Below the pieces are notes generated by a model. It ran no database searches. It saw only the letters and a list, made by a program, of their open reading frames with translations, and was not told the DNA's origin. A stretch of 64,000 nt of DNA from Candidatus Moraniibacteriota bacterium (lineage in GTDB: Bacteria > Patescibacteriota > Minisyncoccia > Moranbacterales > UBA1568). Below, one piece after another: positions 2,106 through 44,369 of the stretch (positions are counted from its first letter, which is position 1; each line of letters begins with the position of its first letter). The position numbers and the translations under genes were made by a program. The stretch covers positions 193,222 to 257,221 of the forward strand of contig CP064994.1 of NCBI GenBank assembly GCA_016699975.1. The letters run 5' to 3'.

Positions 2106-3731
2106 CTATCGGTTGAACACCTCAAGGAGACTTTGACTGTGCATTTCTCGGGGGCGTTCGAGTCCCATGAGTTCGAGAATAGTGGGGGCGACATCGGAGA
2201 GGAGGCCTTCGACTTGAGTTTCCTCGCGCACCATTTCTTCGGCGGTTTTCTCGCGGTGATTGTCTGCGGTGACGAACCAGAGTGGAACCGGATTCTTCGA
2301 ATGTTCTGTGTCAGTTTCTCCTGTTTTGAGATTGCGGATTTCTTCCACATTGCCGTGATCGGCGGTAATAAGGAGCGCGCCGCCCGCTGTGAGAACGGCC
2401 GGAATGAGAAGGGAGAGACACTTGTCGGTCGATTGCACTGCCTCGATCGAGGCTGACTCGTTGCCAGTATGCCCTACCATATCGGGACTCGCATAATTGA
2501 GCAAAATGAAATCATATTTTCCGGATCGTATCGCTTCGATAGTTTTTTCTGTTGTCACTGCGGAACTCATTTCGGGAATTTCATCGAAGTGGGCGACGGA
2601 GGGAGAAGGAATGAGCAGTCGGTCTTCTCCTGGCCACGCGTTTTCCTTTCCGCCGTTAAAGAAGTAGGTGACGTGCGCATATTTCTCGGTCTCTGCGATG
2701 CGGAGTTGTGTTTTCCCATTTCGGCTCAAGATTTCCCCGAGGGCATTGGTAACGTTTTCGGGAGCGAAGGCAACATGGACGGGAAGATTTCGCTCATACT
2801 CCGTCATCGTTACAAAGTCAATGTCGAGCTTCTTGGGACGAGGGAAACCATCAAATTCGGGAAGCGCGAATGCTTTCGTGATTTCTCGGGCGCGATCTTC
2901 GCGATAGTTAAAAAAGACAACAGCATCGCCGTCTCGGACAATTCCCACGGGAACCCCGTCTTTTGAAAGCATGACCGGCTCGATGTATTCATCGGTGACG
3001 CCTTTTCGATAGGACTCTTCGACAAAAGTGAGGAGATCGGTCGTAGAAGGGGTACCTTCGGTCAGGACTCGGTATGCTTTCTCGACACGATCCCAATTAT
3101 TGTTTCGATCCATGCCCCAGTTGCGACCGCCAATGCTTGCTAGAGTGCCTACACTAAGCATATTTGCTCATGCAACGATTTCTTTGAGTGTATGAATGCC
3201 GGATGTCGGGGGTGAATCTCTTCCGTCGGTGAAAGCATGAATGAAGACATTTTTGAGACCATTTTGTGCTGCCATTTGAAGGAGCATATAGAGATGATCC
3301 TTGTTGGAGTGGACCGATCCTTCGCCTACGAGTCCCAGAATATGGAGTGCCCCGCCCGTTTCTTTGACGCGATTCATAGCTCCCATGAAGGCTTCGTTTT
3401 TGTAGAAGGATCCGTCTTGGATCGAGAGGGAAATGCGGGGGAGATTTTGATAAATGACTCGTCCCGCGCCGAGGGTCATGTGACCCACTTCGCTGTTTCC
3501 TGGCGTGTTCCAAGGAAGTCCGACGGCGATGCCGGACGCCTGGAGAGCGGTAAGCGGGTAATATTTATTGAGCTTCTCGATAGTGGGAAGTGTCGCTTCG
3601 CGAATAGGGTTTCCTTGCATCCCAGCGCTGATTCCCCAGCCATCGAGGACGACGAGTACGATAGGTCGGTACATACAATATTTGAGAAGAAATTTTGTCA
3701 GGGTGAAAACATTTTTGAAGAAGTGCCGCAC
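2106..3731 (-). CDS. gpmI: 2,3-bisphosphoglycerate-independent phosphoglycerate mutase, with an in-frame TGA at 3168-3170 splitting it into two same-frame ORFs
   Basis: N-part has VLDGWG...NSEVGH and C-part has ASPDMVGHTG / ITADHGN, the iPGM metal-binding motifs; the two ORFs (3168..3731 and 2106..3161) share one frame across a single TGA. Confidence 0.85.
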
Positions 3732-6500: not shown

Positions 6501-7216
6501 ATGCAAACATTTTTCACCCGTGTTCTCGAAAATCGCGAAGTGGCGCGCGGGACGCAAGCGCTTACGCTGGAAAAGCCTTCGGGATTTTCTTTTGTTGCCG
6601 GGCAATATAGTGTCCTCAGCACTGTCGAATTGATGGCGCCTGATCCAAAGGGTCCGCACCGATGTATGTCGATCGCCTCGGCGTCCTTTGAAGAGCATCT
6701 TCTTTTGCAATGCGCCTTTCAGAGAGTGGGTACAAGCAAACGATAGCGAAACTTCTGCCGGGAGACCGTATCGAAGTCGGCGCTCCTTTGGGGCACACCA
6801 CTCTCATTCCGGAAGACCCGCGTCCTGTTGTTTTTTTGATTGGTGGAATTGGGATTACACCCGCACGAAGTATCCTTTTTCAGGCAAATCATGATCGTGA
6901 TGATCGAGAGTTTTTTTTGTTTTATTCGAACTATGATCGGGAAGACGCTGCGTTTTGGGAAGAGCTCGAGCATTTTCCTTTCCTTCGCTACCGATTTATT
7001 CCGACACTTACCGACAGTAAGCTGGGGATGGAGTCATGGGGTGGTGAGCGAGGATTTATTTCTCGAGCTCTCCTCGAGAAATATTTGCCCGACATTCGAA
7101 CTCCACTATACTACCTCGTTGGAACGCTTGGCTTTACTACGGCAATGACGTCAATCCTTATGGAAGCGGGGGTTCAGAAAACAGCAATACGACAGGATCC
7201 TTTTATTGGGTTCTAA
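6501..7216 (+). CDS. FAD/NAD(P)-binding oxidoreductase (ferredoxin-NADP reductase-like), frame changed near 6714-6720
   Basis: N-part has GQYSVLS...RCMSIAS (FAD-binding RxYS motif) and C-part has PVVFLIGGIGITP (NAD-binding); the ORFs 6501..6746 and 6710..7216 overlap. Confidence 0.75.
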
Positions 7217-28929: not shown

Positions 28930-29001
28930 TCCGGCGTAGCTCAGCGGTAGAGCGAGGGACTGTTAATCCCCAGGTCGCAGGTTCGAATCCTGCCGCCGGA
29001 G
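28930..29001 (+). tRNA. tRNA-Asn (anticodon GTT)
   Basis: Acceptor TCCGGCG/CGCCGGA, D-arm GCTC/GAGC, anticodon loop CTGTTAA, T-arm GCAGGTTCGAATCCTGC, G73. Confidence 0.85.
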
Positions 29002-29115
29002 CATCATAGGACTCTGAGCATATTCTGCCCAAAGTTTTGTTTTATCAGAGCCAAAACCGAGAGGTTCTAGGTGAAACCGTCTTTTTATTTTATATAAGCC
29101 ACTAATAATAAAAAA

Positions 29116-29640
29116 ATGGAAAATGCGACAACAGATGTTAGCCAAAATGTTTCAAGTCAAAGCGTAGCAATCCCAGAAAAAAAGCACGATATGGCTTGGG
29201 TAATTTCTCAAATTATTCTTAGGGAGTTCATAGTTGGATTTCCGATAATTATGGTGTTGATGATAATTGCAGGAATTATAGTTGTTAGCAGTGGCGTAAA
29301 CATTGAAGCACTATTGCAAAGAGCACAAGCAGAACCAGAATTTGCAAAACAATTAGCTATGCTAAATCAGCTTGTTAGTGCAGTATTATTTCCAATTTCC
29401 TATATCGGAACACGCTGGGGATGTAAATATGTGACAAAAGCACTTATATTGAGGAAAAGGATTTTGGAAAAATAGGATATTGGATCGGACTTATTCCAAT
29501 TGCTTTTGGATTGATAAGTGGAAGTGTTATGTTAGGGGCAGCTTTCTTTGGTATTTTTGTTACACCAAAATTAGTAAAGAAGTGGCTTGCAAAGTTTAGT
29601 GCTGAAAATAATTCATTAGACCTGTTGCCTTTTAAGCAAC
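29116..29640 (+). CDS. Hypothetical multi-TM membrane protein; frame changed near 29465 and its 3' end runs into the IS terminal repeat
   Basis: ORF 29116..29475, then an alternative frame IGYWIGLIPIAFGLISGSVMLGAAFFGIFVTPK... that continues into the IS left inverted repeat. Confidence 0.45.
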
Positions 29641-30652
29641 ACTGTTAAAATTGAGTTATCCTAAAAACAAACATAAAACCATGATAAACATCCAGCGAGT
29701 ATTGAAGAATCCAAGGGCAATGTCAGCATTAACAGGTGCAACAGCAACGGAATTCAAGCAGCTTCTTCCTGATTTTATCAAAACGTGGGAAAGTTCAAAA
29801 CGTTATCAACACAGACGAGATGCTGGAGTCAGAAAAATCGGAGCAGGCAGAAAGGGTTTTCTAAAATCCATGGAAACAAAACTGTTCTACGTCCTTTTTT
29901 ACTACAAATGTTATCCAACCTATGACCTTCTCAGTATCATTTATGATTGCAATCGCTCCAATGCTTGCAGACGACAATTTGAGTTAGGAAATCTTTTGGA
30001 AAAAACCTTGGGCAGAAAGCGAGTTCTTCCAGAAAGGAAAATGAGAAAACTCGAAGAGTTTTTCAAAGCTTTTCCGGAGGCGCGAGAAGTCTTCATTGAT
30101 GGCACGGAACGTCCCATTCAGCGTTCAAAAGACAAGGAAAAACAGGAAGAAAACTACTCCGGCAAGAAAAAGAAACATACCCGAAAAAACATTGTTATTA
30201 CTGACAAGAAAAAACGAATTGGTTTTTTGAGTAAGACTGAAGGAGGAAAAAATCATGATTTTCCGATGCTCAAAAGATACGCTTCTCCTGACAATATGCC
30301 AACCAAAATCAAGAAACATTTGGATTTGGGATTCAAGGGGTTTCAAAATCAGTTTCCTGGTCACAAAGTATCAATGCCCAAGAGAAAACCAAGGACAAAA
30401 GAACTCACTGAATTTTCCAAAGAACAAAACAAGAAAAAATCTGCAATCAGAGTCTTGGTTGAAAATGCTCTTGCCGGTGTTAAAAGACTCAGAATTGTTA
30501 CGGATGTATTTCGCAACAAGAAAAAGAATTTCGACGATCAAGCAATGTTCATTTCCTGCGGACTCTGGAATTACCATTTATCAGTAAAATGGTAATTCCA
30601 GAATCTTCATGGAGATTCTTGTTAATTTAAGTTGCTATTAAGCAACAGGTCT
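29618..30652 (+). mobile_element. IS5/Harbinger-like insertion sequence (DDE_Tnp_4 transposase) with 24-bp imperfect terminal inverted repeats and a 3-bp ATT direct repeat
   Basis: Left end agacctgttgccttttaagcaac vs right end gttgctattaagcaacaggtct; flanked by att on both sides. Confidence 0.75.
29651..30595 (+). CDS. DDE_Tnp_4-family transposase
   Basis: N-terminal HTH_Tnp_4-like LTGATATEFKQLL...GAGRKGFL; catalytic YSGKKKKHTRKNIVITDKKKRIGFLSKTEGGKNHDFPMLK. Confidence 0.8.
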   Translation: MSYPKNKHKTMINIQRVLKNPRAMSALTGATATEFKQLLPDFIKTWESSKRYQHRRDAGVRKIGAGRKGFLKSMETKLFYVLFYYKCYPTYDLLSIIYDCNRSNACRRQFELGNLLEKTLGRKRVLPERKMRKLEEFFKAFPEAREVFIDGTERPIQRSKDKEKQEENYSGKKKKHTRKNIVITDKKKRIGFLSKTEGGKNHDFPMLKRYASPDNMPTKIKKHLDLGFKGFQNQFPGHKVSMPKRKPRTKELTEFSKEQNKKKSAIRVLVENALAGVKRLRIVTDVFRNKKKNFDDQAMFISCGLWNYHLSVKW

Positions 30653-30711
30653 ATTAGATAAAATCCCACTTAGGGATTTTATTGTGTCCAAAAATTTACT
30701 AAAATATAAAT

Positions 30712-31172
30712 ATGTGGAATAAAGTAACAAAATTTATACCAGAAAATTTTAGAATTGTTGCCACATTGGTTACATTTTCAATTATAACCTTCATAAATGA
30801 GGGGTCTGGGGGTAGTTTTTCAATGAATAAGTTTACAGATAGTGGATTTGCGGGTTTTTCTTTGGAAAATGCTCTCAAAGGAACATTGATGACATACCTC
30901 TATCTTTTTGAAGGGTTATCTATTCTTGGAGTGCTTATTGTTATTATGTGGCGCGTGATCGCTGGATATTGGATTTGGAATATGAAGGATCACACAAAAA
31001 TGTCAGAAAACAAAGCGAAGAAGAGTTTACAGAAAACAATACTAAGGCATTCAATTACATTATAAAACTCGCATTGATTGCGGGGTTGGTAACTGGCGTA
31101 TTTGTAATTATAATCGGATTTGCACTCAAGTTCTATATTCATTATAAAACTGGCAGTTGGTGGTTAGAATAA
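30712..31172 (+). CDS. Hypothetical small membrane protein, frame changed near 30950
   Basis: ORFs 30712..31065 and 30948..31172 overlap; both halves are hydrophobic. Confidence 0.4.
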
Positions 31173-31410
31173 ATTATTGAAATGCAAAAGTGTTCAAAAA
31201 AAGTTCTAAATCTGCCCTGAATTTGAGCGATTTCAGTTCTGAATATAGCAAATTGGCGGAGCCAAACTCGGATTAGGAGCAGCGAAATCTGCTTCTTTTC
31301 CTTTTACAGGGTCTTGAGCTGCATGTTCGAGTGTACCTATTTTTTTCAATTTCAATGAACATGAAAGCGAGACCGTCTTTGATGATGGAGAACGGTTCTT
31401 TCGCGTTTGT

Positions 31411-31475
31411 CCACTAGGCGGAGCAGCCAAAACAAGGCTTGAGCGGGCCTTGTTTTTGTATATCCTCTGTTGGAG
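31411..31475 (+). repeat. Hairpin repeat family, copy A (truncated, abutting IS30 copy 2)
   Basis: ccactaggcGGAGCAGccAAAACAAGGCttgagcggGCCTTGTTTTtgtatatcctctgttggag; about 90% identical to copy C. Confidence 0.8.
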
Positions 31476-32561
31476 GGTGAGTTCAAGAATTTAATGCCCC
31501 TTTTCCAGTACCCTGGCAAAAACTTCATTCGGCGTCAAATAGTTAAGCGCTTTCCTCGGTCGATTGTTGAGTTTGTCCTGAACTGACCGAACTTCTTTTT
31601 GGGAAATTTTATCAAACGGGCATTTCTTCGGAAAATACTCTCGTAACAATCCATTCAAGTTTTCCACACCTCCTTTCTGCCAACTTTTGTAGGTATCGCA
31701 GAAGTAGGAAGGAAGAGAAAGTTTTGTTTCGTTTCTCCGTGCAAAACATTCTCCGTTCCATTATCTCTCGTAATACTTCTCCTCAATTGCTGCGGAAGCC
31801 GAGAGAAATGTCCCTGTATCGCTCGTTCGCTTTCGACCGCTGTTTTGTTTGGAACTTTCTTTAATCGGCATAGCTTCATTTTTCGCTCGTACTGTACCGA
31901 GAGTACTGACTTCTGTTTTGAGAATATCACGGAATCGGTTTCCCAGTCTCCAAAGTGTGTACGCTTGGTAATGACCGCGGGTCTTTCGTGAATGGGTATT
32001 CTATCCGGAATCGTCTCTTTTCGCGGTTTTCGAGAGAACTTTGGTCGTCTCCGCTTCTGTTTTCGTCGCAGATGTTTGTACCATCCGCCGACCCTTCCTT
32101 CTCCGCGGTAAATGTAATCATAGATGGATTCGTAACTTATCGAGGTATCCGTACACGAGGAAAGATTTTTCGGAGGAGATGTTTTCAACCGGCCGGCTAT
32201 CTGCTCCGGTGAATGTCCCTTCAGGAGTTCGCTTTCGACAAACTTTTTCAGTTTCTCGTTTTGCCATTTTCCAGTTTTCTTTTGTTGGTATTTTTCTTTC
32301 GTCTTTCCGCATACGCTTCAGCTCGGATGGCAACATAGGGAAGGTGCGGACTCGAATTTCTTCGTATCTCTCGCTTGATGACGGAGTAATCTCTTCCAAG
32401 TTTCTCCGCGATCCATGTTTTCTTTTTCTTCATGCGGAGAAAGCTTTCGATTCGCTCTCGTTCAAAGAAGGTTATGGACGTTCCTTTTGGCATATTCATA
32501 GCGTTTTTGGAAGTTAACGCCGGAGTATACCAGAAAAGGGGCTTCGGGGTTTGAATTCACC
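31476..32561 (-). mobile_element. IS30-family insertion sequence, copy 2 (inverted, 1086 bp); no target duplication; transposase degraded
   Basis: Near-identical to copy 1 with the same terminal repeats; the fragments (ORFs 32248..32499, 32118..32399, 31655..32188) carry HTH MPKGTSITFFERERIESF...REIRRN and the core ...GDWETDSVIF...SITRDNGTEN; flanks gag / gtg do not match. Confidence 0.85.
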
Positions 32562-33614
32562 GTGATTTATTTACCATCATTTAAAAAGCCTGTAACAATC
32601 AAGCCAGTAGCTCTAAATGAACTTGGAGAACAGCTAAGTATTTCTATTCCAGATGTGAGGGTGCCAAAGATTGAATTAGAAGAAAAAGAGCAAGAAAAGA
32701 TTGTAAACGATACGATTAAGTTTGTGTTTGGTACCTCACCTAAAGATGCTCTATCTAAAAGTGAATTTGAGAAGAGGTGTTTGATTTTTGCAAGGCATAT
32801 CGGAGAAAAATGGGAAGAGATACTGACAAGTTCTCATCATCCTATCGAGGAAAAACTTCCTGAAGTTATAGCAAAGATGGAAGCGGAGAGTTTTCGACTA
32901 CTGGTTCTATCTGGAGTTTTAGCGATCTATGGTACCGAGGAGCAAATAAAAGTGTTTGTAGAAACTCTTTCAGAGGTTTTGAAGTTAGCAAAAGGTAAAT
33001 CAGGGATTGTTGCAATTATTGCGGTTCCTGAGGTTATTGTTCTTTTGACGATATATATATTTACCTTGCTCGCATTAGCAACTCGAGACTTTAGTCGGTT
33101 AAAGGTATTTACCAATACCAGAGTCTATGGTTGGGTATACGATGGTGAGCCACCAAAAATCCTAGCCCTGAATCACGTTCACTACACCAGCGCATTAACC
33201 GGACATGCCGATAAAGTTGCGGACTTTGTTAGATCTAGACTTGAATCTATGAAGTGGTTAAAGTCTCTACACCCAAGACTGGAGAATATTCAAGATGTCC
33301 AAATACAAGCCAGTTTTCTTCTTAGTATGCTTATGCGCCACAATGATATTAGGACTTGGCCTGATTTTGGAAGATGGTACGCTCAAAGAATCACCTCTAT
33401 CGTAGAAAGGATAAAATATGATGATCAATATGTTAAACAAATAGCCAGTCTTTTTGATGTTCAATCCAAGGATTTGAGGTTGAAATTTTCGGAGTATCTT
33501 ACCGACTTTCGAAAGGCTGGGATGGCTCAGTATCACTGGGAATCCATCAGTCAGAAAGCACTCTTTACACCCGAGGAACTTACAAAGATGAAAGAGGAGA
33601 ACTTAGGAGATTAA
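32562..33614 (+). CDS. Hypothetical protein (350 aa, AT-rich), probably 5'-truncated by IS30 copy 2
   Basis: The ORF opens exactly at the IS boundary; first ATG is about 107 codons in; internal TM segment; no recognised domain. Confidence 0.45.
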   Translation: MIYLPSFKKPVTIKPVALNELGEQLSISIPDVRVPKIELEEKEQEKIVNDTIKFVFGTSPKDALSKSEFEKRCLIFARHIGEKWEEILTSSHHPIEEKLPEVIAKMEAESFRLLVLSGVLAIYGTEEQIKVFVETLSEVLKLAKGKSGIVAIIAVPEVIVLLTIYIFTLLALATRDFSRLKVFTNTRVYGWVYDGEPPKILALNHVHYTSALTGHADKVADFVRSRLESMKWLKSLHPRLENIQDVQIQASFLLSMLMRHNDIRTWPDFGRWYAQRITSIVERIKYDDQYVKQIASLFDVQSKDLRLKFSEYLTDFRKAGMAQYHWESISQKALFTPEELTKMKEENLGD

Positions 33615-33909
33615 GACATAATTTATGTGGTCTTTGGATTTTACTTTTGGAAAAACGAGCTAAAATTGAAACAAAAAATCGGTTAGGTAGGCGTCTAAAC
33701 TAGTCTAATTTCATGGACAACGCTTTCGTTTTTGGAGATGGAGGGGTAATTACTGGAGAAGATTGTTGGGCGAGTGAGAGGAAATAGTGAGGGATTTTAA
33801 CCGCGAGGATTTTGGGGCGACCCTTGCATAATATCAAGCTCCATGTTATCGTCCGCTGTCTGGTTCCTTGACAATTCATGTTCAACAATTCACCTATCGG
33901 AGGTGCAAA

Positions 33910-34741
33910 GTGGCTACTGTAGAAAAGAGTATTCGTCCCATGATATTCAGTGCTCCGGCTATTGGGGAGCGTGAAACGGTTTTTCCCTTGGCTCGAGAGC
34001 TGGTTCGTATTCAAGTTCCGGAAGCACTGATCAAAGATATCCTCGAAGCCTGCGATGGTCAGAGAACTTTGGATATGGTGCTGGAATTGCTTGAATCTAA
34101 GTGGGATCGCGATACATTAGAGAGCTTCTTGCGGCACTTGCACGAGAAAGGGGTGCTGTATGATAGCTCAAACTTGAGCGGTTTCGTTTGGCCGTTCGTT
34201 TCAAATCCGAGTCACTTCTCAAAAGCGGTGACTGATCTTCAGGTAGCTGAGATGGTTGAGCGAGCGTGCTTGAGGCAACGGAATCTTCCATCAAATATGT
34301 TTTTCACGGTGAAGGAGTATTATCCTTTCCAACGATTGGTTTCCAATCGGAAATCGGAACGATCCTTTTCAGGGAAAGTGATTAGCATGGAGCGTGTTGT
34401 TCAAATGCTGTGGGCGGGATATGGAGTTATTGCCGAATCTCAATCAGGAGTGGGCTTTGACCGTCATACCGTTCCGTCGGCGGGAGCATTGTATCCGTGG
34501 CGTGGTGATTGTGAATGGGTCGTTTAGTGTAGGGGAAGAGAAATATGGCAACAGGTCGCTCCTCTATGTTCCGCTTGAAGCGGGGCATGTCGCGCAGAAC
34601 ATTCTTTTGGAAGCGACAGAGTGCGGTGTTGCGACGGTGGAGATTGGCGGATTTCTCGAAGAGCCGATGCGAGACGCATTACGATTGCCGACGGAATTCG
34701 TTCCGTTGACCACCGTGGTGTTTGGCGATTCTGCCGGTGGT
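33910..34741 (+). CDS. SagB-type dehydrogenase (McbC-like nitroreductase-fold, TOMM 'B' protein), frame changed near 34508-34515
   Basis: SERSFSGKVIS...TVPSAGALYP hallmark motif, followed in the next frame by VVIVNGSFSVGEEKYGNRSLLYVPLEAGHVAQNILLEA...GGFLEEP; GGAGG RBS then GTG at 33910. Confidence 0.8.
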
Positions 34742-35970
34742 GGGGATCATGGACATCACCTGCCATGCGGATTCGAAGTTTGGTGGGCATATCCAAAAGC
34801 AAATGGATACGTGTTGCCGTTCAATCTCGTGTTTGCTCGATTGGCAAAAGCTTCCGGTGGAAGCGAAGAGTGGTCATGCGGGCGTTCTTCCGATCCTTTC
34901 GTGGCGTATGAAAAAGCGACTGCGGAAGTGCGGGAGTGGGCGGCATGCAGTCTTCCGCATAACCTTGTGAAGTCGAATATCGGATCGCTTGCGAGTGCGG
35001 TAGCGCCGGACAGCATAGTGGCGTTTCATCCCGATCAGTACGCTTCGCCGAGTTTTCCGTTCTTTCCCTTGAACAAGAAGGGGTCTACGAATGGAAGGAA
35101 GCCACAGACGTGGTAACGTGTGAAATACATTTCATTCTGGCTGACTGTATCTACTTCCCCTACTATCCGGAGTATCCGCGCTGTGCAAGTGCGAATTCTT
35201 CCGGAGCGGCTGCGTATCCCACAAGGATTGGCGCAGTTCGGCGCGGGGTGTTGGAGTTGATCGAGCGAGATGCCTTCATGATCGTGTGGCTCAACCGTTT
35301 GGTGATGCCAACGATCGCTGGTGGTAGTTTTCCGGATGATGTTCGGTGTCGTATTCGCAACTTGGAAGAAGCGGGTTTTGAAGTGATCATCAAGGATGCG
35401 ACACTTGATTTGGCTCCGGTTGTGTTGGTATTCGCGCAGAGCGAAGACTTGCATTACACAACGTGCTCCGCTTGCTGTTCTTTCAATGTTGACAGGGCGC
35501 TGAATCATGCTTTACTGGAGGTCGAAGCGGCGGTGTATTGTCGTTTGGCATTCGGCTCTTCAGAGCCGATGCTTCCCGAAGATGTGCGGATGACGCAGGA
35601 TCACGGGAAGCTGTACGAGCAAGAAGCTTTTTTCCGACAAGCGGATTTTCTGAAAGAGTCTCGGCTCTTGAAAGACTTGAGTGAAGTCGGCGAGGGCGCT
35701 TGCTTTCACTGGGAAATGCTGTTGGTGCGTATCGCGGAACAAGGAAGGAACGTTCTGGTGGTCGATCTTGAAAATCCGCATGTGGACGGTATTCAGTCAA
35801 ATCTGTTCATAGTGAAAACTTTTGTGACAGGATTGGTGCCGATAAGCTTCGGGTACAGAGAAGAGCCGTGCGGGATGCAAAGAATCTACGAAGTCCCTGT
35901 GACTTTTGGATTCCGTTCCGACCCGATTCGTTACGACGAACTCAACAGGTTCCCGCATCTTTACACATAG
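34742..35970 (+). CDS. YcaO cyclodehydratase domain protein (TOMM 'D' protein), frame changed near 35045-35075; contiguous with the SagB reading frame with no intervening stop
   Basis: N-part SCGRSSDPFVAYEKATAEVREWAACS; core SSGAAAYPTRIGAVRRGVLELIERDAFMIVWLNRL (YcaO ExxERD motif). Confidence 0.8.
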
Positions 35971-35993
35971 CTTGCGAAAGGGGGTGATGATCC

Positions 35994-36158
35994 ATGCAAG
36001 CAGGAAAAGCCGCGAAGGGGCAATCCTTCGAATGGTGCGTCACGGTTGAACCGCGGCGTTCGGGTAGAGGGCACGAAGCACTCTCGAGCAAAGGGAGCAG
36101 CAGCTCCGGTTCGTGTCAGCGTTCCAACAGCTGTCGGGCAAGCGCGATTCAACGCTAA
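35994..36158 (+). CDS. Candidate TOMM/RiPP precursor peptide (54 aa): MQAGKAAKGQSFEWCVTVEPRRSGRGHEALSSKGSSSSGSCQRSNSCRASAIQR
   Basis: Not in the ORF track because it is under 60 aa; RBS aaggggg 9 nt upstream; Ser/Cys/Gly-rich C-terminal core; immediately downstream of YcaO and followed by two strong hairpins. Confidence 0.5.
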   Translation: MQAGKAAKGQSFEWCVTVEPRRSGRGHEALSSKGSSSSGSCQRSNSCRASAIQR

Positions 36159-37182: not shown

Positions 37183-38865
37183 CTAGAAAGCAAAGATGAG
37201 AAGCTTACTTATTTGAGCCAAAGTTCCTTCCGGATACGGTATCGCTTGCTCCCATTCAAAGGTTCGGAAGCTGTCCCGCCAAGCGAGCACTAGTGAAGAA
37301 CTGGAGTATGAAAGCTCCAGTTTTTCTTTATCTGAAGGGTTTTTCAGAGGTTCGAACCTTTGAGAAATAGAATTTACCTGGAATGAGAACCCTTGAAGCT
37401 TTAAAATCGGATTTGTGGCTTCTATCAAGAACTTTCTTTCTTTGATAAAGAGGTTCGAACCTAGGCCATTTATGATGAGTTTTTTGGTTTCCTCATTTCC
37501 TTCCTGAAATCTATCTTTAATATCTTCAGCAATACTTAAAGTTTTCTCTAATCGATCAATCCATGTTTCTGAGGCCTTCTCAGAATCAGCTAGTATCTTT
37601 TTGAGTCTATCCCTGTCTTGTAAGATGGCTTCTCGCTTAGGCGTAAAAACCGCTTCAGGGATCTCGTTACTTAGTCGGAGCTCCAGTAACCTATCCAGTT
37701 TATCTTCCACGCTCTTTAAGGCTCGTTTCTGGCTTTCTAGAAGTCTTTGCTGCTCTTCAATGCTTGATGCCTCTTTGCTCCTAAAATAGCGTACAGCCCA
37801 CTCCTTAAAGCTTGCAGGGATGCTTATGGATTCAAGTAAACTGCCAATTTGGCTTTCTAGTTCCTTTTCCTCAATTACCTTTTTAGGGCAATCGGGATTC
37901 TTCTTCCCCGTACAGTGATAGTAAGTATAAAAGTGAACATTGCCATTCTTATTTCTCTTCACTTTATTTTCAGCCGTGATCATGGCGCCACAGCTACCGC
38001 ATTGAATAGTTCCTCTATAGGTGAAATCGTATTTATCTGGCCGAGTAGTGCCTCTCTTTCCTAGTATCGTTTGAATCCTTAAGAACTCTGCTTTGGTGAT
38101 TATGGGAACATGCTTCCCTGAATACCAGTTCCCGCTTCCTAGCGGATACTCAAACTCTCCGTAATAAAAAGGATTATTCAACATTGCATACCATGTACTA
38201 TTAGCGATAGGACTTCCGTTTCGATTTCTCAATCCCCATTCTTTCGTGGCTAATTGATATGCCTTCATTGGTGTGTATTCACCAGAAGCTATCCCCTTAA
38301 ACGCTTTCCTGATCACATCGAAACGTTCAGGGTCGGTAAGCACCTCCTTGTCTCCTTTGAGTTTCATCGGATTAGCGGCATACCCATAAGGGGCTACTCC
38401 AGGGAACCAGCCTCGCTCTGCCTTAGCCCGAAGTCCTCTTTTGGTATCTGTACTTAAGTCTCGGATGAACTGGTTAGCCATTCCCAGCTCCACATTCATA
38501 AGGAGTACATTGTCAGAAGGGTAGTAATCTCGGCCTTGGGTCTTTATGTTTGTGATAAAGCCCTCCTGCAACAAGTGGCTAATCATTCCGCCATCAAGGG
38601 CGTTACGAGTGAGACGGTTAATTTTCCAACAAAGAATACCATCGGCCTCTCTTTTTTGGATTTTGCTAATCATTTGATTGAAGACAGGTCTTCCAATCGC
38701 TTTTGCAGACATGGATTCAGTAAGTACCTCAATCACGTTTAGATCATACTGAGTAGCTATCTTTTGAAGCTCATGAACCTGAGATTCAATAGAGGCCATT
38801 TGCCTATCCTCGGATTCGCTCGACTTACGAGCGTAAAGAATGTATTTATTTGCTTTCTCATACAT
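37183..38865 (-). CDS. Large serine recombinase (phage-integrase type)
   Basis: N-terminal resolvase domain YARKSSESEDRQMASIESQ...R; recombinase domain; zinc ribbon CGSCGAM...YYHC; coiled-coil C-terminal region. Confidence 0.88.
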   Translation of the reverse strand: MYEKANKYILYARKSSESEDRQMASIESQVHELQKIATQYDLNVIEVLTESMSAKAIGRPVFNQMISKIQKREADGILCWKINRLTRNALDGGMISHLLQEGFITNIKTQGRDYYPSDNVLLMNVELGMANQFIRDLSTDTKRGLRAKAERGWFPGVAPYGYAANPMKLKGDKEVLTDPERFDVIRKAFKGIASGEYTPMKAYQLATKEWGLRNRNGSPIANSTWYAMLNNPFYYGEFEYPLGSGNWYSGKHVPIITKAEFLRIQTILGKRGTTRPDKYDFTYRGTIQCGSCGAMITAENKVKRNKNGNVHFYTYYHCTGKKNPDCPKKVIEEKELESQIGSLLESISIPASFKEWAVRYFRSKEASSIEEQQRLLESQKRALKSVEDKLDRLLELRLSNEIPEAVFTPKREAILQDRDRLKKILADSEKASETWIDRLEKTLSIAEDIKDRFQEGNEETKKLIINGLGSNLFIKERKFLIEATNPILKLQGFSFQVNSISQRFEPLKNPSDKEKLELSYSSSSLVLAWRDSFRTFEWEQAIPYPEGTLAQISKLLIFAF

Positions 38866-38923: not shown

Positions 38924-39430
38924 TTATTCAATCAGGCCTCTTTCTCTTCGGGATTTTAAGATCATCTCACCCAGCTTAGTAAAATCGAATGTATTAACTA
39001 GCTCCAGCTTCTTTTCCATTGGTTTAGGCTCAAAAATGCCTAATCTTTCCATAAAGCGGTCGTAATCATCATAGTCTCCCTCCTCAACCTTCTTTCTTCC
39101 AAGACGCATAGCCTCTAAAATTCCAAACCCATCTGCTTCTAAGACTGCATTATTCAAAAGTTGAAGTTTTTTGTAATTTTGAGAGCCAATTTTTGCGGCT
39201 GTTGCATAATCGTCTGTATCGTAAACAGCGAGGGCGCACCTTACTCGATTGCCAAAGTAGGCCTTATTCGATTTATCTAGAAAAAGGGATGTCCAAAGTT
39301 TAAATTTTTCAGATTGCGCCTGCATAAGTTTAATAGGGGAGATAGTTTTGGCTTGTTCCTTGATCTTTAAAAGTTCTCTCTTGGCCTCGTTCTGGTTCTT
39401 TACCCCGTCGATTTTTTTAGGATTAGACAT
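38924..39430 (-). CDS. Hypothetical protein
   Basis: 168-aa ORF co-oriented with the recombinase. Confidence 0.45.
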   Translation of the reverse strand: MSNPKKIDGVKNQNEAKRELLKIKEQAKTISPIKLMQAQSEKFKLWTSLFLDKSNKAYFGNRVRCALAVYDTDDYATAAKIGSQNYKKLQLLNNAVLEADGFGILEAMRLGRKKVEEGDYDDYDRFMERLGIFEPKPMEKKLELVNTFDFTKLGEMILKSRRERGLIE

Positions 39431-39767
39431 ATTAGTTAACTTCTCGGACTTTATAAGTTTCTCTAAGAAGATTTAAAAATTGCTCAGTATACCTGGCAGC
39501 CTCTACTTCTGATAGCTTCATTCCAAATTCCTTTAGGAATAAGGCCTGAATTTCTTCTATTTCTTTAGGTGTAAACATAGAACTGTAGGCACTTACCTAC
39601 AGTCTAGAGTTCTTTCTTTTAAGTTCAGAGCACATTATGTGTACTACATATCTTGCCGTTTTTTGGCTTCACGAGAGACAATTCTTCTAATTTCTCCCAT
39701 ATAGAACTTCTCATTAAAATACTTTTTTACCAACTCTCGAATTTCAACTTCTGGTAAATGACGGTTT

Positions 39768-40097
39768 TCATAAATAAATCTGTTTCGCTCCTGTTTTTTT
39801 TAAGTCTTTTTTCTTTGTCTTTCCAAGCTTTTCTTTTTTTGAATCCTTTTTATCCAATTTATCTTCAACCGTTTTCCAGTTAGCTTTTATAAAATCAACT
39901 ACGTCTCTCTGCGTGGCAAATGGACTAATGCGAATAATGACGGGGTAGTATTTATTTTCACCCTTTAAATGGTTGAAGAAAGATTCATTCGTTTTTTTAT
40001 TCCCTGGTTGGTAATCTTCCCATTCTTCTTCTGTGTCAATGATCTTACAAACTCCCTCACTGGCAAAAAGATAGACTGCGAACTCAATATCATACAA
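39768..40097 (-). CDS. Hypothetical protein
   Basis: 109-aa ORF; Lys-rich C-terminus. Confidence 0.4.
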   Translation of the reverse strand: MYDIEFAVYLFASEGVCKIIDTEEEWEDYQPGNKKTNESFFNHLKGENKYYPVIIRISPFATQRDVVDFIKANWKTVEDKLDKKDSKKEKLGKTKKKDLKKTGAKQIYL

Positions 40098-40163: not shown

Positions 40164-40496
40164 TTATATTGGCCGTATTCTGTCTCGGAATTCTTTAATA
40201 AGTGAGTAACCTTCAGTGGGAAGGTAAAAGGGATGCGCTAATATCTCCTTTAAAATCATTGATTCCAACTCTAATCCCTCTTCTGGTATATCGAAATTTT
40301 TTCTCAACAAGGAAATCTGCTTTAACACCTCTTCTTTAACAAGAAGATCATTAAGGAAATAAGCCGTTTTGAGTGCTGCCTGTGTAACCCTTATCCCTCT
40401 TTTTTGACAGTCCTGTATGTAGGGTTGGAGAAGCTCCCTTTGGCGCTTTCTCTTCTCGTGAGGTTCTAAGACAGCTTCTTTTCCTGATCTCTTCAT
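40164..40496 (-). CDS. Hypothetical protein
   Basis: 110-aa ORF. Confidence 0.4.
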   Translation of the reverse strand: MKRSGKEAVLEPHEKRKRQRELLQPYIQDCQKRGIRVTQAALKTAYFLNDLLVKEEVLKQISLLRKNFDIPEEGLELESMILKEILAHPFYLPTEGYSLIKEFRDRIRPI

Positions 40497-40561
40497 ACGC
40501 TTTTACCCTTAGTATGAGCCAAAGTTTGCCTTCAATAAAGCCCGGGGTTATCATTGATAAC

Positions 40562-40695
40562 GGTTAGCTACTACAAGGGTTTTTGCGGAGAAAGATGTCT
40601 TTGCATCTTTTTTCCTACTTGTTGCCCGAAAGGGGCGCCGACGCCGCAAGTAGGTTCCGCAAGGATCCCGAAAGTAGCTAACCAAGTCGGCGTCC
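40562..40695 (+). ncRNA. Candidate structured RNA or cis-regulatory element (nested inverted repeats, GNRA-type hairpin, terminator-like 3' end)
   Basis: 11-bp closing helix GGTTAGCTACT/AGTAGCTAACC; inner helices TGCGGA/TCCGCA and CCTACTTG/CAAGTAGG; gccc-gaaa-gggc hairpin; gggcgccgac can pair alternatively with gtcggcgtcc followed by tttttgttttg. Confidence 0.4.
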
Positions 40696-40730
40696 TTTTT
40701 GTTTTGATAATTTTTTAATATAAGCGATTT

Positions 40731-40979
40731 ATGGTCATCGTTGCTGCCGTTATAATTACAGCCGTAGTGGTTTCTCTTTGGAGTAAGTATGCTTACACAA
40801 AAGGGAACAAGAATACCTATGTGGCTTTTGAGGCTCTAATTAATGAACTGAATAACATGGCCAAAGAGAATGGACATGTAGATGTTTACAGTTATTGGGT
40901 AGAAACTAAAGGTAAAGAATATGCCGATAAAGCAAAAGAAAACTTAGATAGTACCCTCAAGTTTCTTAGGGAAGGATAG
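40731..40979 (+). CDS. Hypothetical small membrane protein
   Basis: 82-aa ORF with N-terminal TM. Confidence 0.4.
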   Translation: MVIVAAVIITAVVVSLWSKYAYTKGNKNTYVAFEALINELNNMAKENGHVDVYSYWVETKGKEYADKAKENLDSTLKFLREG

Positions 40980-40984
40980 TTTGT

Positions 40985-41170
40985 ATGATCTCTACAAACG
41001 AAGCTAGAAGTCTCCTACCGAATGGCGCCTCCTACTCCGATCAAGAAGTTGAGAAGATCCTTGAAGACCTTTATTTTCTAGGGAACCTTTCGTTGAAGGC
41101 GTACCTTGATGAGCGTTCTAGTTCTCACGAACTTTTATTAAAAAGCCTTCGAAATCCTCCTGCAAGTTAA
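40985..41170 (+). CDS. Hypothetical small protein
   Basis: 61-aa ORF with RBS. Confidence 0.3.
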   Translation: MISTNEARSLLPNGASYSDQEVEKILEDLYFLGNLSLKAYLDERSSSHELLLKSLRNPPAS

Positions 41171-44100
41171 ACTCGAATCTTTCGAAAACATGTATAAGTA
41201 TCCTTTCCATGAGGTAGTTTTCTTGATTTTTTTGGCTACCTTCTTTGCTAAGCCAATCAGGTGGATTTTGTAAGAACTTTTTCATTAGTTCTGATTCTGG
41301 AAGAAATTCTTGAACATTTATTTTAAAGATATCAATTTTAAGTGATTCACTGTCCGTAGCCTCTAAGGGAGAGTATTGAGTTAAGATCCCCAGCCTATTT
41401 TTATTGAGAACAAGAATATAGGAATCTCTTTTATTATCGTAAAGCTCGTAAACGGGTATATCCTTATCTTTAACCTTATAAAAGCCGTTTATTTCCTTAG
41501 GAAGACTGCCTTCAGCGATGTTTAAACGCCATTTAGGAGTGTATTTTTCATTCTGGTTTGCTTCAAAGAAGGATCTCCAGCTGGCATTATTTACTGCAAT
41601 AATAATTGCCTCACCAGTGGTGGAAATATCCGCTATTTTTTGATCCAAGTCAGCAGCACTTATGACTGCGGAGCGATCCTTAATTTTCTTTAACAGATCC
41701 GTGTTTTCTCCTATTACCATGTTCCTGCCAAACTCAAATCCTTCTTCCATTCCTAAAACATGAACGTGCCAGGATACGGAATCATCGAAGAAACCGGCTT
41801 TATCAAATAAAGTGTTTACTCCTAGACTTTTGAGATCACCTGAATATGGTTCGTTGCTCTTATCTTGAAACAGACTGTAGTGGCGGAGAATACTTCGAAG
41901 TTGATCATTATCGTAAAAATCTTTCACTACGCTTTTTTTAAAAATCGCTACCTTTTTCGGGGAAATTCTTAATCTTCTTTTTTTATCTATTTCTTCATTT
42001 TCTTGGCTTTCTTTAGCACGTACTAGAAGATCCTTGAAGCTATCTACTTTCTCTAATGCTTTCCCATCCAGTAAAAAGCTCCAGTTACTAGGATTGGCTT
42101 TCATGTCTTCTAGAGTACCCAATAAACTTCTTGTCCCTTCAGCAAGGTATGCCAAATCTCTACTGTGAGGCAGGTTAATGCCCGCTATTTCATCGGGAGT
42201 TTTCTCCTTTAAGATTTCTAATGAATATACTGCATAAAGCCTTTCAAGTTTTGAAAGAATATCAATCGTATGTGCTTCACCTTCTTCTTGTCCTTCCATT
42301 TCCCAGTTATCCCAGCCCCAGAAGCTTTCTACTGCAAAGTCATGAACAACGGAGAAGAGCTTAGTAAAATCATTAATTTCGCTAGGAAGTTTTCTTTTTA
42401 CTTCATCATAAAATTCTTTCACCTTTTCGTTATCTTTGTCTTGTTCTAACTCGTATAAAATCCAGCTAGCTACACCAAAGAACATCTCCTTTCTCTTTCC
42501 ATCAAGATAATCGTAAAGTTTCTCATCCTCATCAGAATCAGATCGGCCAGAATCCCGAATATCTTTGAATAACTTTGAGGTAACAAGCAGAAACTTTTGA
42601 AAGTTCAAAGTATCTCTATTGCTAAATGAAGCTTTTAATAAGCTTTGAAAAATCTTCAATATTTCCTCTGCAAAAAGTTTTATCTCTTCCTTTGAGTAGT
42701 TCTTATCTTCGAGCTTTTCTTCCAAAGGATGTCTTGATAGGTCATTGAGATATCTCCATATCCTGTCGAAAATGAAGGCTGCTCTCGTCTCATCATTTTT
42801 TCTTTTGGCCTCTATAGCAATGTGGTAAAAGCGTAGGGGATAATATGCAAACTCTTGAAATATTAGGTGGTCTTTATGGTCAATCGCCTCTTGAAGAAGC
42901 CGGATGGGTAAGTACATTACGTAGCGATTAATATCCTTACTTACAGAACTTAACCCATTTTCAATAACTTCGCTTATGTCTTTTGAGATCCAGGAAACTG
43001 ACTTAAAGCCCCCAAACGCTATTTCAAACCTCATATCGCTAGCTTGCTTTGCAGAAAATCCTCCTCCGTGCTGTTCCAAATAAGAGTAAAACTCCTTGAT
43101 TAACTCGATGTAGAAATCGGTGATTTCTCCCAACTCCTTAGTCTTCTGTTGCTGAATAAATTCATAACAACGAAGTTTAATCTCAGAAATCTCATTTTGG
43201 ATCTCATCATAGTCAGTGCTATTTCGTTTGATCACGAACAGCTTATTGGCCATTTCTGAGACTTTTGCTTTTTCTGACGGCGATTTAATTAAATCCTTGT
43301 GTATCCATAGGAGATTTCCTTCGCCTTTCTCAAGATATGATAAGTATCGTGGAACAATCCAGAAATAGGGATCTCTTCCTTTGTATTCCTCATCAGTGTT
43401 TGAAACCTCATCTGAGTTTTTGAGAAGAGCGCTGTAGTCTTCAGGTAATCTTTTCTGAAATCTTAAAAGAAAACTATTTAGCTTATTTAGTTTAAAATCG
43501 TAGAATGTACCAGTTTTAAGTGTTTTTATTGGAATAAATCTATTTTTATTCACAGGAGAAAAAGGGCTGACTTCAACTACCTTTTTGAACCTTTTAAGTT
43601 TTTTGTTGAGGACGCCATCTCCTATTAACTGGGTTACTTCGTTATCTAATAAATTAAGAAACCGGATCTTAATAGCATGTAAAAACTCCTTCCTTTCTTT
43701 TTTAAAGCTAAAATTATTCGAAAATAGGTTTAAAGTCTGAAATAGAGAGTAGATTGTTCCCGCAGCTATAAGCACCAAAGGAATAACCCCGAAGAAATTA
43801 ATGTTTCCCCACCAAATGTAGTACAGGAAGTAAAGAACCTCAGCTATTATTAAAAGTGGGAAAAATTTACTCCTTTTCAATAAAATTCTTCCCCTGTAAG
43901 GATTCTCGTTAGCTATCTCTTGGGCAATGAAAAATGCCAATCCAATTAAAACTGCGCCTATTCCTGCATGGATCGTGATTAAGTTTTGAAAATGGTTTTC
44001 TTCTCGTAATATCTCGGAGAGGTTGCTGAATTTGTTTTCGATCCAATAAGATAGATTTTCACAGCATATATTATTGAACTGATGAAGAATTCCATTAATC

Positions 44101-44369
44101 CAATTGGAATGGGAGAGCACAAAGAAAAAGGCCAATACCAAGACAACTGCAAGAATTTCCCACCCTGATAACCATAAAAGTGTAAGCTTTGAGTTTATAA
44201 GTTCCTTATGATCTTTTCTTAACTTTTTCTCTTCTTTGACTAAGCTAAGTAAGGAAGGTTCTCTTTCCCAAGAAAAGACTTTTAGGATCGCTTTTAAAAC
44301 TTGTACTGTCTTCAATTCTTCTTTCATTGTCGTGTAGTCAAACAAGGGGTAATCAGGGCATTTTCTCAA
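41118..44369 (-). CDS. Large hypothetical protein (1083 aa) with an N-terminal 4-5 TM region and a long soluble domain
   Basis: Uninterrupted 3.25-kb ORF in the AT-rich island; no motif I can assign. Confidence 0.7.
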   Translation of the reverse strand: MRKCPDYPLFDYTTMKEELKTVQVLKAILKVFSWEREPSLLSLVKEEKKLRKDHKELINSKLTLLWLSGWEILAVVLVLAFFFVLSHSNWINGILHQFNNICCENLSYWIENKFSNLSEILREENHFQNLITIHAGIGAVLIGLAFFIAQEIANENPYRGRILLKRSKFFPLLIIAEVLYFLYYIWWGNINFFGVIPLVLIAAGTIYSLFQTLNLFSNNFSFKKERKEFLHAIKIRFLNLLDNEVTQLIGDGVLNKKLKRFKKVVEVSPFSPVNKNRFIPIKTLKTGTFYDFKLNKLNSFLLRFQKRLPEDYSALLKNSDEVSNTDEEYKGRDPYFWIVPRYLSYLEKGEGNLLWIHKDLIKSPSEKAKVSEMANKLFVIKRNSTDYDEIQNEISEIKLRCYEFIQQQKTKELGEITDFYIELIKEFYSYLEQHGGGFSAKQASDMRFEIAFGGFKSVSWISKDISEVIENGLSSVSKDINRYVMYLPIRLLQEAIDHKDHLIFQEFAYYPLRFYHIAIEAKRKNDETRAAFIFDRIWRYLNDLSRHPLEEKLEDKNYSKEEIKLFAEEILKIFQSLLKASFSNRDTLNFQKFLLVTSKLFKDIRDSGRSDSDEDEKLYDYLDGKRKEMFFGVASWILYELEQDKDNEKVKEFYDEVKRKLPSEINDFTKLFSVVHDFAVESFWGWDNWEMEGQEEGEAHTIDILSKLERLYAVYSLEILKEKTPDEIAGINLPHSRDLAYLAEGTRSLLGTLEDMKANPSNWSFLLDGKALEKVDSFKDLLVRAKESQENEEIDKKRRLRISPKKVAIFKKSVVKDFYDNDQLRSILRHYSLFQDKSNEPYSGDLKSLGVNTLFDKAGFFDDSVSWHVHVLGMEEGFEFGRNMVIGENTDLLKKIKDRSAVISAADLDQKIADISTTGEAIIIAVNNASWRSFFEANQNEKYTPKWRLNIAEGSLPKEINGFYKVKDKDIPVYELYDNKRDSYILVLNKNRLGILTQYSPLEATDSESLKIDIFKINVQEFLPESELMKKFLQNPPDWLSKEGSQKNQENYLMERILIHVFERFEFNLQEDFEGFLIKVREN

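Follow-up and report, generated by a model that had tools for sequence, protein, structure and literature searches.

Background

Many phages and integrative elements use large serine recombinases as their integrases, and these enzymes have become major tools of genome engineering. Literature searches found no structured RNA tied to these enzymes and no description of a dedicated RNA control of their expression. The described systems that come closest to the one reported here are of several kinds: transcription attenuators (the leaders of pT181 repC and of pIP501/pAMbeta1, the trp/TRAP and the PyrR systems), the IS200 tnpA leader and IS10 fold-back inhibition, the IS110/IS1111 bridge (seek) RNAs, the P4 CI / P1-P7 C4 antisense RNA (Rfam RF01695), and the lambda PR'-6S RNA-tR' arrangement with Q. 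Here we describe an element on the plus strand of a 64,000-nucleotide stretch of the Candidatus Moraniibacteriota bacterium genome (assembly GCA_016699975.1, contig CP064994.1, positions 193,222 to 257,221). This whole stretch is called the window below, and coordinates without a locus name refer to it. This is an RNA-level element, is folded beyond chance expectation, and consists of a long interrupted rod and a long-range helix, T, that pairs a loop of the rod with the tail following it. Its family of RNAs has no entry in Rfam 15 and is found near large serine recombinase genes, mostly in Patescibacteria (the Candidate Phyla Radiation, CPR).

The family resembles the transcription attenuators in being a promoter-proximal leader of a mobile-element gene with a latent terminator before the coding region and, if the reading that we prefer is right, in an earlier 1:3 pairing that would prevent the terminator, the outcome being set during transcription. 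The known attenuators, however, share nucleotides between the preemptor or antiterminator and the terminator, whereas here the rod and T interleave and exclusion would be steric; nor was any convincing antisense promoter or set of binding repeats found in the family sequences read. As in the IS200 tnpA leader and in IS10 fold-back inhibition, the start of a recombinase or transposase gene is buried in a helix with its leader, an arrangement that would serve to keep expression very low. The IS200 and IS10 structures are short local hairpins, whereas the present one is a rod of 110-150 nt with a long-range helix and a terminator tract, and it serves serine recombinases and also heads cargo operons.

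Like the bridge RNAs, members of the family are structured non-coding RNAs immediately upstream of a mobile-element recombinase gene. Bridge RNAs serve DEDD recombinases, however, whereas the enzyme encoded in the window has Resolvase, Recombinase and Zn_ribbon_recom domains; they also expose unpaired guide loops to target and donor DNA, whereas the variable segments of the family all pair internally. With the P4 CI / C4 RNA the family has in common a leader-derived RNA, a loop complementary to its own transcript and an element-specific segment; pairing in that system causes termination or blocks translation. It differs from C4 in its architecture, in having no Rfam match and in having a single complementary site, adjacent in cis. 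Lambda provides the parallel of a strong promoter, a short terminated leader and genes expressed by read-through only. In lambda, however, the leader does not form a conserved structured domain, and control lies with a protein that binds DNA and RNA polymerase, whereas no antiterminator was identified in the family. The family is a new one of a known type, namely regulatory leaders that lie close to their promoter and have a platform for termination or for masking of the start site.

Fold of the element

The core of the element is a rod domain (state A, 40562-40683, plus strand, as are all of its parts) made up of helices P1 and P2 and hairpins Pa and Pb; it is supported by the predicted fold and by covariation of P1, P2 and Pb within the family. 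P1, which closes the rod, is a perfect 11-bp pairing evident in the sequence itself (GGTTAGCTACT, 40562-40572, with AGTAGCTAACC, 40673-40683). Inside it the minimum-free-energy fold places P2 (13 bp, 40577-40589 with 40656-40668), the hairpin Pa (40590-40611) and the hairpin Pb (40614-40622 with 40646-40654), whose apical region (40623-40645) carries a tip hairpin, GCCC-GAAAG-GGGC, at 40623-40637. A preliminary description of this DNA had reported a perfect 11-bp closing helix around two further helices and a GAAA-capped hairpin. The closing helix is present, with its 3' arm ending at 40683, one base short of the position originally implied, and the inner helices and the GAAA-tipped hairpin are found in the fold as P2, Pa and Pb.

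Two segments outside these stems are complementary to each other. The 5' arm of helix T, T-a (AAAGGGGCGCCGAC, 40629-40642), lies within the apical loop of Pb, and the 3' arm, T-b (GTCGGCGTCCTTTT, 40686-40699), begins 2 nt beyond P1; the two show 86% complementarity across 14 nt. Helix T is followed by a U-tract, TTTTTGTTTTG (40696-40706), and a similar tail is present in those relatives that we class below as type 2. The element had been described as about 130 nt long, at 40562-40695. It does lie there, but the functional unit is larger and spans 40526, where a promoter-like site begins, to 40706, the end of the T-run.

The minimum free energy of the plus strand is -64.7 kcal/mol, against -41.7 +/- 4.2 kcal/mol for 200 dinucleotide shuffles (z = -5.5), none of which folded as well. 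For the minus strand of the element the value is -55.5 kcal/mol (z = -4.6); seven G.U pairs of the window fold are exclusive to the plus strand. The element occurs as a single copy within the 64-kb window.

Relatives of the element and extent of the family

A search of Rfam 15 with the full window returned only 4 tRNAs at the gathering threshold and no family for the element, and a search with 40300-40900, using permissive filters and E values up to 10, returned only chance-level matches to microRNA (miRNA) and long non-coding RNA (lncRNA) families. The relatives described below gave no match at the element itself. The comparison with Rfam that the preliminary description had proposed yielded no family for either the window element or its relatives.

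Relatives of the window recombinase were collected from viral contigs (L001-L007) and from species-representative genomes (L008-L087), mostly metagenome-assembled genomes (MAGs) of Patescibacteria. An exact 31-mer of the element was absent from the viral contigs searched, and a type 1 leader (see below) gave no blastn match to annotated phage genomes. When the element was compared with the 87 loci by blastn and nhmmer, there was one weak match, in L010, at a relative position and orientation like those in the window. The L010 element has a window-like fold architecture (z = -6.7), and it served as a lead. R1, a covariance model that had the window sequence as its sole source, detected about 10 related elements, and the refined model R2 found 24 members in the 87 recombinase loci. 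A DNA pattern made from the commonest P1 and tail (GTTGACCC...GGGTCAACCAG...GTCC) matched at least 120 metagenome contigs; R2 placed a member in 78 of the 80 metagenome loci among the matches listed. Overall there are 94 distinct members, including the metagenome ones among the matches listed, and these come mostly from Patescibacteria MAGs and metagenome contigs.

The window element reaches 124 bits under R2 and 101 bits under R3, a model for type 2 members, but it sat in both training sets. It has all the traits of the family: a -10 box at P1, the P1-P2-Pb rod, loop-tail complementarity and a U-rich tract. A MAFFT alignment of the members (A2) was inconsistent with the structure and was left unused. 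Six viral contigs (L088-L093) match the P1 pattern (GTTGACCC and GGGTCAACCAG separated by 75-105 nt), and neither R2 nor R3 confirms any of them; they may represent a subtype that has diverged, or inverted repeats that arose by chance, and we have left them unconfirmed.

Covariation of the rod

Covariation was assessed in 23 genome-derived members and, separately, in 71 distinct metagenome members. Pairing in the genome set amounts to 91.1% of cells and drops to 33-45% on sliding the 3' partners by 1-3 columns; changes on both sides are seen in 38 of the 41 pairs, and no shuffle attains the observed values. The metagenome set gives 89.7% paired against 37-48% when slid, with all four Watson-Crick types at most positions of P2 and Pb; P1 in this set is fixed by the search pattern. 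In the genome set P1 compensates as well, as GUUGACC/GGUCAAC, GCUUACC/GGUAAGC, GUUCACC/GGUGAAC and, in the window, GGUUAGC/GCUAACC. Both alignments were fitted to a model and are biased toward the structure; with so large an effect and with the slid controls, an alignment artefact is unlikely. The preliminary description had held that the absence of an Rfam match together with a lack of conservation or covariation in related sequences would count against the element; Rfam gives no match, and the relatives both conserve the element and covary.

The dimensions of the rod are less constant. The 3' path varies from 13 to 34 nt across members, with helix boundaries taken from an automatic duplex search. 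For the same reason, a correlation of P1 length with arm length, intended as a test for a fixed tertiary geometry, was uninformative. In the consensus of the 71 distinct aligned members the junctions are either gapped or of no preferred base, only the helices and the T arms being conserved, and Pa is absent from most members.

These features bear on the suggestion that the element is a metabolite-binding riboswitch with its three-way junction as the aptamer. A position in a 5' leader, a multi-helix junction in the subtype to which the window belongs, an alternative terminator pairing, and a platform that varies between termination and masking of the start codon would all suit a riboswitch. A riboswitch has a conserved core for its ligand, with invariant nucleotides in junctions or loops, but the junctions and internal loops here vary in both length and sequence, Pa is mostly missing and no conserved pocket can be recognized. 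Moreover, the genes controlled (the recombinase, small membrane proteins and unannotated cargo open reading frames, ORFs) share no metabolic theme, and there is no Rfam match. In the ligand-binding sense, then, the riboswitch proposal is not supported, the junctions being unconserved, and we regard it as very improbable.

Pairing of the apical loop with the tail

In every one of the 23 genome-derived members the Pb apical loop can form a duplex of 12-20 bp with the tail that follows P1. Its mean energy is -29.8 kcal/mol for cognate and -17.8 kcal/mol for non-cognate combinations of loop and tail, the window value being -28.9 kcal/mol. Helix T was found in almost every member examined, and its core occurs in more than 20 distinct matched variants, with matched lengths of 6, 7 and 8 nt; examples are GGUCUG/CAGACC, GGUUCUG/CAGAACC, GGACUG/CAGUCC, GGCCUCUG/CAGAGGUC and AAUUCUG/CAGAAUU. 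Among the members read by eye a G.U pair recurs in the T core (GGGGCGG/CCGUCCC).

The anatomy of T is that of an A-tract, a GC-rich core and U residues following it, with the arms 43-60 nt apart in the family. In the window AAAGGGGCGCCGAC, the arm that contains the A-tract, pairs with GUCGGCGUCCUUUU, after which comes UGUUUUG; this is the combination of GC-rich stem and U-tract by which intrinsic terminators are recognized. A standard terminator scan misses it because 43 nt lie between the arms. From this sequence signature, we consider helix T a putative intrinsic terminator. T uses 16-20 of the approximately 23 nt of the apical loop, and the linker from P1 to T-b is 0 nt in 91 of the 94 members by a duplex call that over-extends; in the window a direct reading gives 2 nt.

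The preliminary description had seen in the 3' segment and its T-run an alternative partner for an internal segment of the element, giving a classic antiterminator/terminator topology. A second pairing is borne out, in that two interleaved pairings both covary; the two may alternate or partly coexist. The topology is not the classic one, because antiterminator and terminator share almost no nucleotides; their exclusion would have to be steric or topological.

Promoters and downstream genes

A TAnnnT hexamer lies 3-9 nt ahead of the model start in 92 of the 94 members (exactly 4 nt ahead in 88), accompanied by an extended TG in 39. Because the spacing of this -10 box is fixed, the 5' end of the RNA is predicted to lie at or beside the first P1 pair. 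The window has a promoter-like site by consensus scan (40526-40554, plus strand; -35 TTGCCT, 17-nt spacer, -10 TATCAT), from which transcription is predicted to start at about 40561-40562, again at or beside the first base pair of P1. A leader peptide or leaderless ORF beginning at a conserved 5' RUG was considered and rejected, since many members have early stops and no peptide is conserved. Also rejected was an antisense promoter using the TTGAC of P1; no acceptable -10 was seen at the right spacing in L060, L057 or the window when these were read by eye.

Among the 87 members with enough sequence, 70 have the N-terminus of a serine recombinase (Y-x-R-x-S-S...Q) directly downstream; we term these type 1. 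For 65 members the position of the start codon could be assigned, and it falls within -12 to +23 nt of the point where the extended T duplex ends. Helix T of type 1 covers the 20-35 nt ahead of the start codon. Some type 1 members, such as those in L054 and L055, have no U-tract, and their ATG lies no more than about 5 nt beyond T. Regulatory expression platforms typically show such a mixture, some terminating transcription and others masking the start site.

Type 2, which includes the window element, is distinguished by the additional hairpin Pa, a strong U-tract and a position ahead of non-recombinase genes. Model R3 matches nine of these: the window, L010, L004, L016, L019, L028, L024 (82-238), L054 (5520-5663) and L119 (1774-1919). 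Types 1 and 2 occur together in L024, L054 and L119. The first qualifying ORF starts 24-105 nt past the end of the type 2 element, and in 7 of the 9 cases (all but L054 and L119) the downstream gene encodes a hydrophobic, membrane- or signal-like N-terminus. A simple scan also marks Pa and the U6 that follows it (40590-40613) as terminator-like. The U-run on the 5' side, between P2 and Pb, is kept in type 1 members without Pa as well; a pause site, a flexible joint and an early stop are candidate roles for it.

In the window the gene behind the element (40731-40979, plus strand) encodes an 82-amino-acid (aa) protein with an N-terminal transmembrane segment. Its start lies 24 nt past the U-tract, which agrees with the preliminary placement of the element upstream of a small membrane-protein gene, and a simple consensus scan of the interval from the U-tract to the ATG revealed nothing resembling a promoter. 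For the 82-aa protein 11 homologues were found, 57-100% identical to it; because of these and of a 59%-identical homologue at L020 4805-5053, we take the ORF to be a real gene. Two of the homologues are encoded on the contigs L214/L215 and L216, which are laid out like the window, the recombinase and a divergent operon occupying opposite strands. At the head of the operon containing the 82-aa gene these contigs carry a close homologue of the element (L214 3703-3848, 62 bits; L216 3498-3647, 55 bits; both independent relatives), so that the same element stands ahead of homologous genes in L214/L215/L216, a pattern that the preliminary description had proposed looking for. The L214 and L216 elements share P1 with the window (GGUUAGCUA...), and their T arms, GCGCUCGAC/GUCGGGCGUC compared with GCGCCGAC/GUCGGCGUC in the window, differ by a matched 1-nt insertion in both arms. 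The ATG lies only about 10-25 nt past the U-tract in L214 and L216, too near to leave room for a separate promoter.

Proposed competition between the rod and helix T

On balance we favor reading the element as a cis-acting leader of about 140 nt in which the rod and T compete, forming a two-state attenuator. Transcription would start at or beside the first P1 pair, and the nascent RNA would fold into the long interrupted rod P1-P2-(Pa)-Pb, state A. The rod would pair segments 1:3 and T segments 2:4, an H-type topology with stems of about 30-40 bp and 12-20 bp; because the pairings interleave with linkers of only 0-5 nt, a full rod and a full T are probably mutually exclusive. With the rod formed, the tail would be free, transcription would read through and translation could begin; with T formed instead, transcription would terminate or the start codon would be masked. 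In the window the leader would in this way gate the gene of the 82-aa membrane protein. As there is no conserved ligand pocket, the likely input would be folding kinetics, or a protein or RNase acting on the 5' strand or on the rod, rather than a metabolite. In type 1, states A and B lie within 2 kcal/mol of each other in 10 of 16 members, by energies of nested structures.

Several points weigh against this reading. In type 2 the rod is favored over the nested state B by 11-26 kcal/mol (+15.6 in the window), and because the rod is both more stable and transcribed first, a simple thermodynamic switch would never use T there; type 2 T would need help, for example from a factor that blocks the 5' strand. 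T is nevertheless strictly conserved although the type 2 rod is far more stable. The 5-bp tip hairpin is all that the rod and T have in common, which sets them apart from known pairs of terminator and antiterminator, and the short linker after P1 together with a predicted start flush with P1 points to a partial pseudoknot in which the structures coexist. No Shine-Dalgarno-like sequence is visible in the tail, which makes the translational effect a proposal, and no trigger for the choice between rod and T was identified. More generally, we infer the start site, the termination and the switching from sequence.

The main rival, a static pseudoknot with a constitutive terminator, builds on some of these points. 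In it the rod would bend, the T core (about 11 bp, GGGGCGG.../...CCGUCCC) would stack coaxially on P1, and P2-Pb would lie alongside, the bend falling at the U-rich bulge or Pa junction and at the P1/P2 internal loop. The product would be an end-protected RNA of about 140 nt with leaky read-through, an insulator and dosage limiter and not a switch. The linker called as zero and the predicted start at P1 fit such stacking, whereas a pure switch needs neither, and the retention of T even where state A is much more stable than the nested B would be explained. A rough energy sum would likewise favor rod plus T, if they are sterically compatible, and the near-consensus and often extended -10 promoters imply strong attenuation downstream. 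However, a full T takes nearly all of the apical loop, leaving linkers of 1-3 nt, which an intact Pb cannot close. The wide range of rod lengths is unlike a single fixed geometry, and no conserved junction feature is present to hold a sharp bend. We think a static pseudoknot unlikely.

LOOT RNA and possible action in trans

An orphan motif, LOOT RNA (Rfam RF03000), is found in related loci on the strand opposite to the recombinase (L020 5467-5592, L055 2440-2561 and L060 2889-3018, all on the minus strand). In L020 it heads the operon with the 59%-identical homologue of the 82-aa protein. Because LOOT there takes the slot of the window element, we regard LOOT and type 2 as positional analogues. 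The two share the kind of recombinase locus and, in L020, the place at the head of the operon. They differ in structure: LOOT consists of four serial hairpins, with neither a closing rod nor a loop-tail helix, and the window gives no LOOT score. LOOT is listed by Rfam as a small RNA (sRNA) gene, and we know of no function assigned to it. In L217 there is no type 2 leader upstream of the operon with the 82-aa homologue; two tRNA-like fragments, GGGGUUCGAACCUCCC and GAGGUUCGAACCU, are found there (3270-3400), and these could be remnants of an attachment (att) site.

The presence of an sRNA motif in the equivalent L020 position is compatible with a reading in which the terminated 140-nt RNA acts in trans, either as an immunity or copy-control RNA, its loop pairing with the tails of nascent leaders, or as a partner of the recombinase. 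An RNA of this kind would be expected to have its own strong promoter and terminator and to have both ends buried in helices, as here, and the family is tightly tied to one recombinase clade. The loop/tail specificity segment varies between elements and between the two L024 copies, as in heteroimmune control RNAs. Every variable segment is already paired within the molecule, however, and there is no free guide-like loop. Matches to the loop in the window number 4, against 2.75 expected by chance, so that no second target stands out from chance there; a guide- or bridge-RNA reading was rejected on the same two grounds. The recombinases carry Resolvase, Recombinase and Zn_ribbon_recom domains, which in characterized large serine recombinases are domains for recognizing DNA, and the dependence of the downstream genes on read-through of the leader already gives the RNA a role in cis. 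Action in trans appears to us decidedly unlikely.

Genomic neighborhood

The large serine recombinase of the window (37183-38865, minus strand; Resolvase, Recombinase and Zn_ribbon_recom by domain search) is the last of five ORFs on the same strand, a run that heads away from the RNA, from a point some 65 nt to its left. Small ORFs of the element lie at 38924-39430, 39432-39578, 39768-40097 and 40164-40496. Recombinase and element are housed in a low-GC stretch at about 37-45 kb, with 35-42% GC compared with about 49% outside. Between the two divergent transcription units lies a perfect palindrome, GTTATCA-T-TGATAAC (40547-40561; 7 bp with a 1-nt spacer), which overlaps the -10 box and the predicted start and is a possible operator, judging by its sequence and position. 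The 110-aa ORF upstream of the element is an orphan, its sole match being itself, and in searches of the neighboring ORFs with PADLOC, Pfam and PHROGs the recombinase was the only informative match.

As another interpretation the preliminary description had offered an attP-like site or a replication origin, and intergenic inverted repeats beside a recombinase operon would suit it. Read at the level of DNA, the element would be attP or another recombination site, a single-strand origin or an origin of transfer (oriT); P1, as GTTGACCC/GGGTCAAC, is indeed unusually conserved for a helix. An attP site would be split on integration, though, and the low-GC region that bears the recombinase contains the element unbroken. 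Known attP sites are compact, about 50 bp, whereas about 100 nt separate the arms here. There are many conserved G.U pairs specific to the strand, one of them in the T core, and the fixed -10 box upstream and the U-tract of the terminator tail downstream are signals of a transcript. In four relatives a tRNA gene adjoins the 3' end of the recombinase (L020 8556-8627, L024 5943-6014, L060 8576-8646 and L057 8585-8656, all on the minus strand), which suggests that these elements integrate into tRNA genes and have the recombinase at their edge, and hints that the junction lies there and not at the RNA. The interpretation as a DNA site does not survive these comparisons; we consider it extremely improbable.

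In the window it is an ORF resembling a DUF2268 protease, not a tRNA, that adjoins the 3' end of the recombinase. L010 has a group I intron just beyond the 3' end of its recombinase (6757-7020, minus strand; Rfam, 92.5 bits). The recombinase with the highest best-segment identity to that of the window (65%) is in L053 (6998-8612), where it appears split into ORFs of 278 and 272 aa, possibly by a frameshift or as a pseudogene; it ends a run of same-strand ORFs, and no leader RNA was detected there.

Convergent to the 82-aa gene is the gene of a 1083-aa protein with N-terminal membrane segments (41118-44369, minus strand). Its only match, below threshold, is to ABC-3C CTD8, and PADLOC gave none. 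A 59%-identical homologue of 1067 aa is encoded in L217 (4210-7413, minus strand) at the equivalent position beside the 82-aa homologue; because they are paired there too, the two genes seem to travel together. A second low-GC patch of the window (28930-36000) lies beside a tRNA-Asn gene (28930-29002) and includes an insertion sequence (IS)-type DDE transposase (29651-30595; DDE_Tnp_4 and HTH_Tnp_4). Beyond the transposase, at normal GC, are a YcaO gene (35110-35970) and a nitroreductase-like ORF (33868-34527), possibly a cluster for a ribosomally synthesized and post-translationally modified peptide (RiPP).

Implications for mobile elements of Patescibacteria

The family is abundant, one exact variant of P1 alone being found on at least 120 metagenome contigs, and it comes mostly from MAGs of Patescibacteria, a group in which almost no gene regulation has been studied experimentally. 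It also places the orphan motif LOOT, found at the corresponding genomic site in related elements, in a functional context. A more far-reaching proposal, which we put forward tentatively and think rather improbable as a whole, is that these leaders are the first RNA class devoted to large serine recombinases, as their control or as their partner, and are widespread in mobile elements of Patescibacteria, a class in which a factor of the element or host, or the recombinase itself, would set the choice between rod and T and so time the expression of integrase and cargo, by an exclusion that is purely topological. The arrangement of two terminator arms separated by a structured rod provides a compact model that can be tested. 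If antiterminator and terminator do exclude each other topologically, this would be a design not described for known attenuators.

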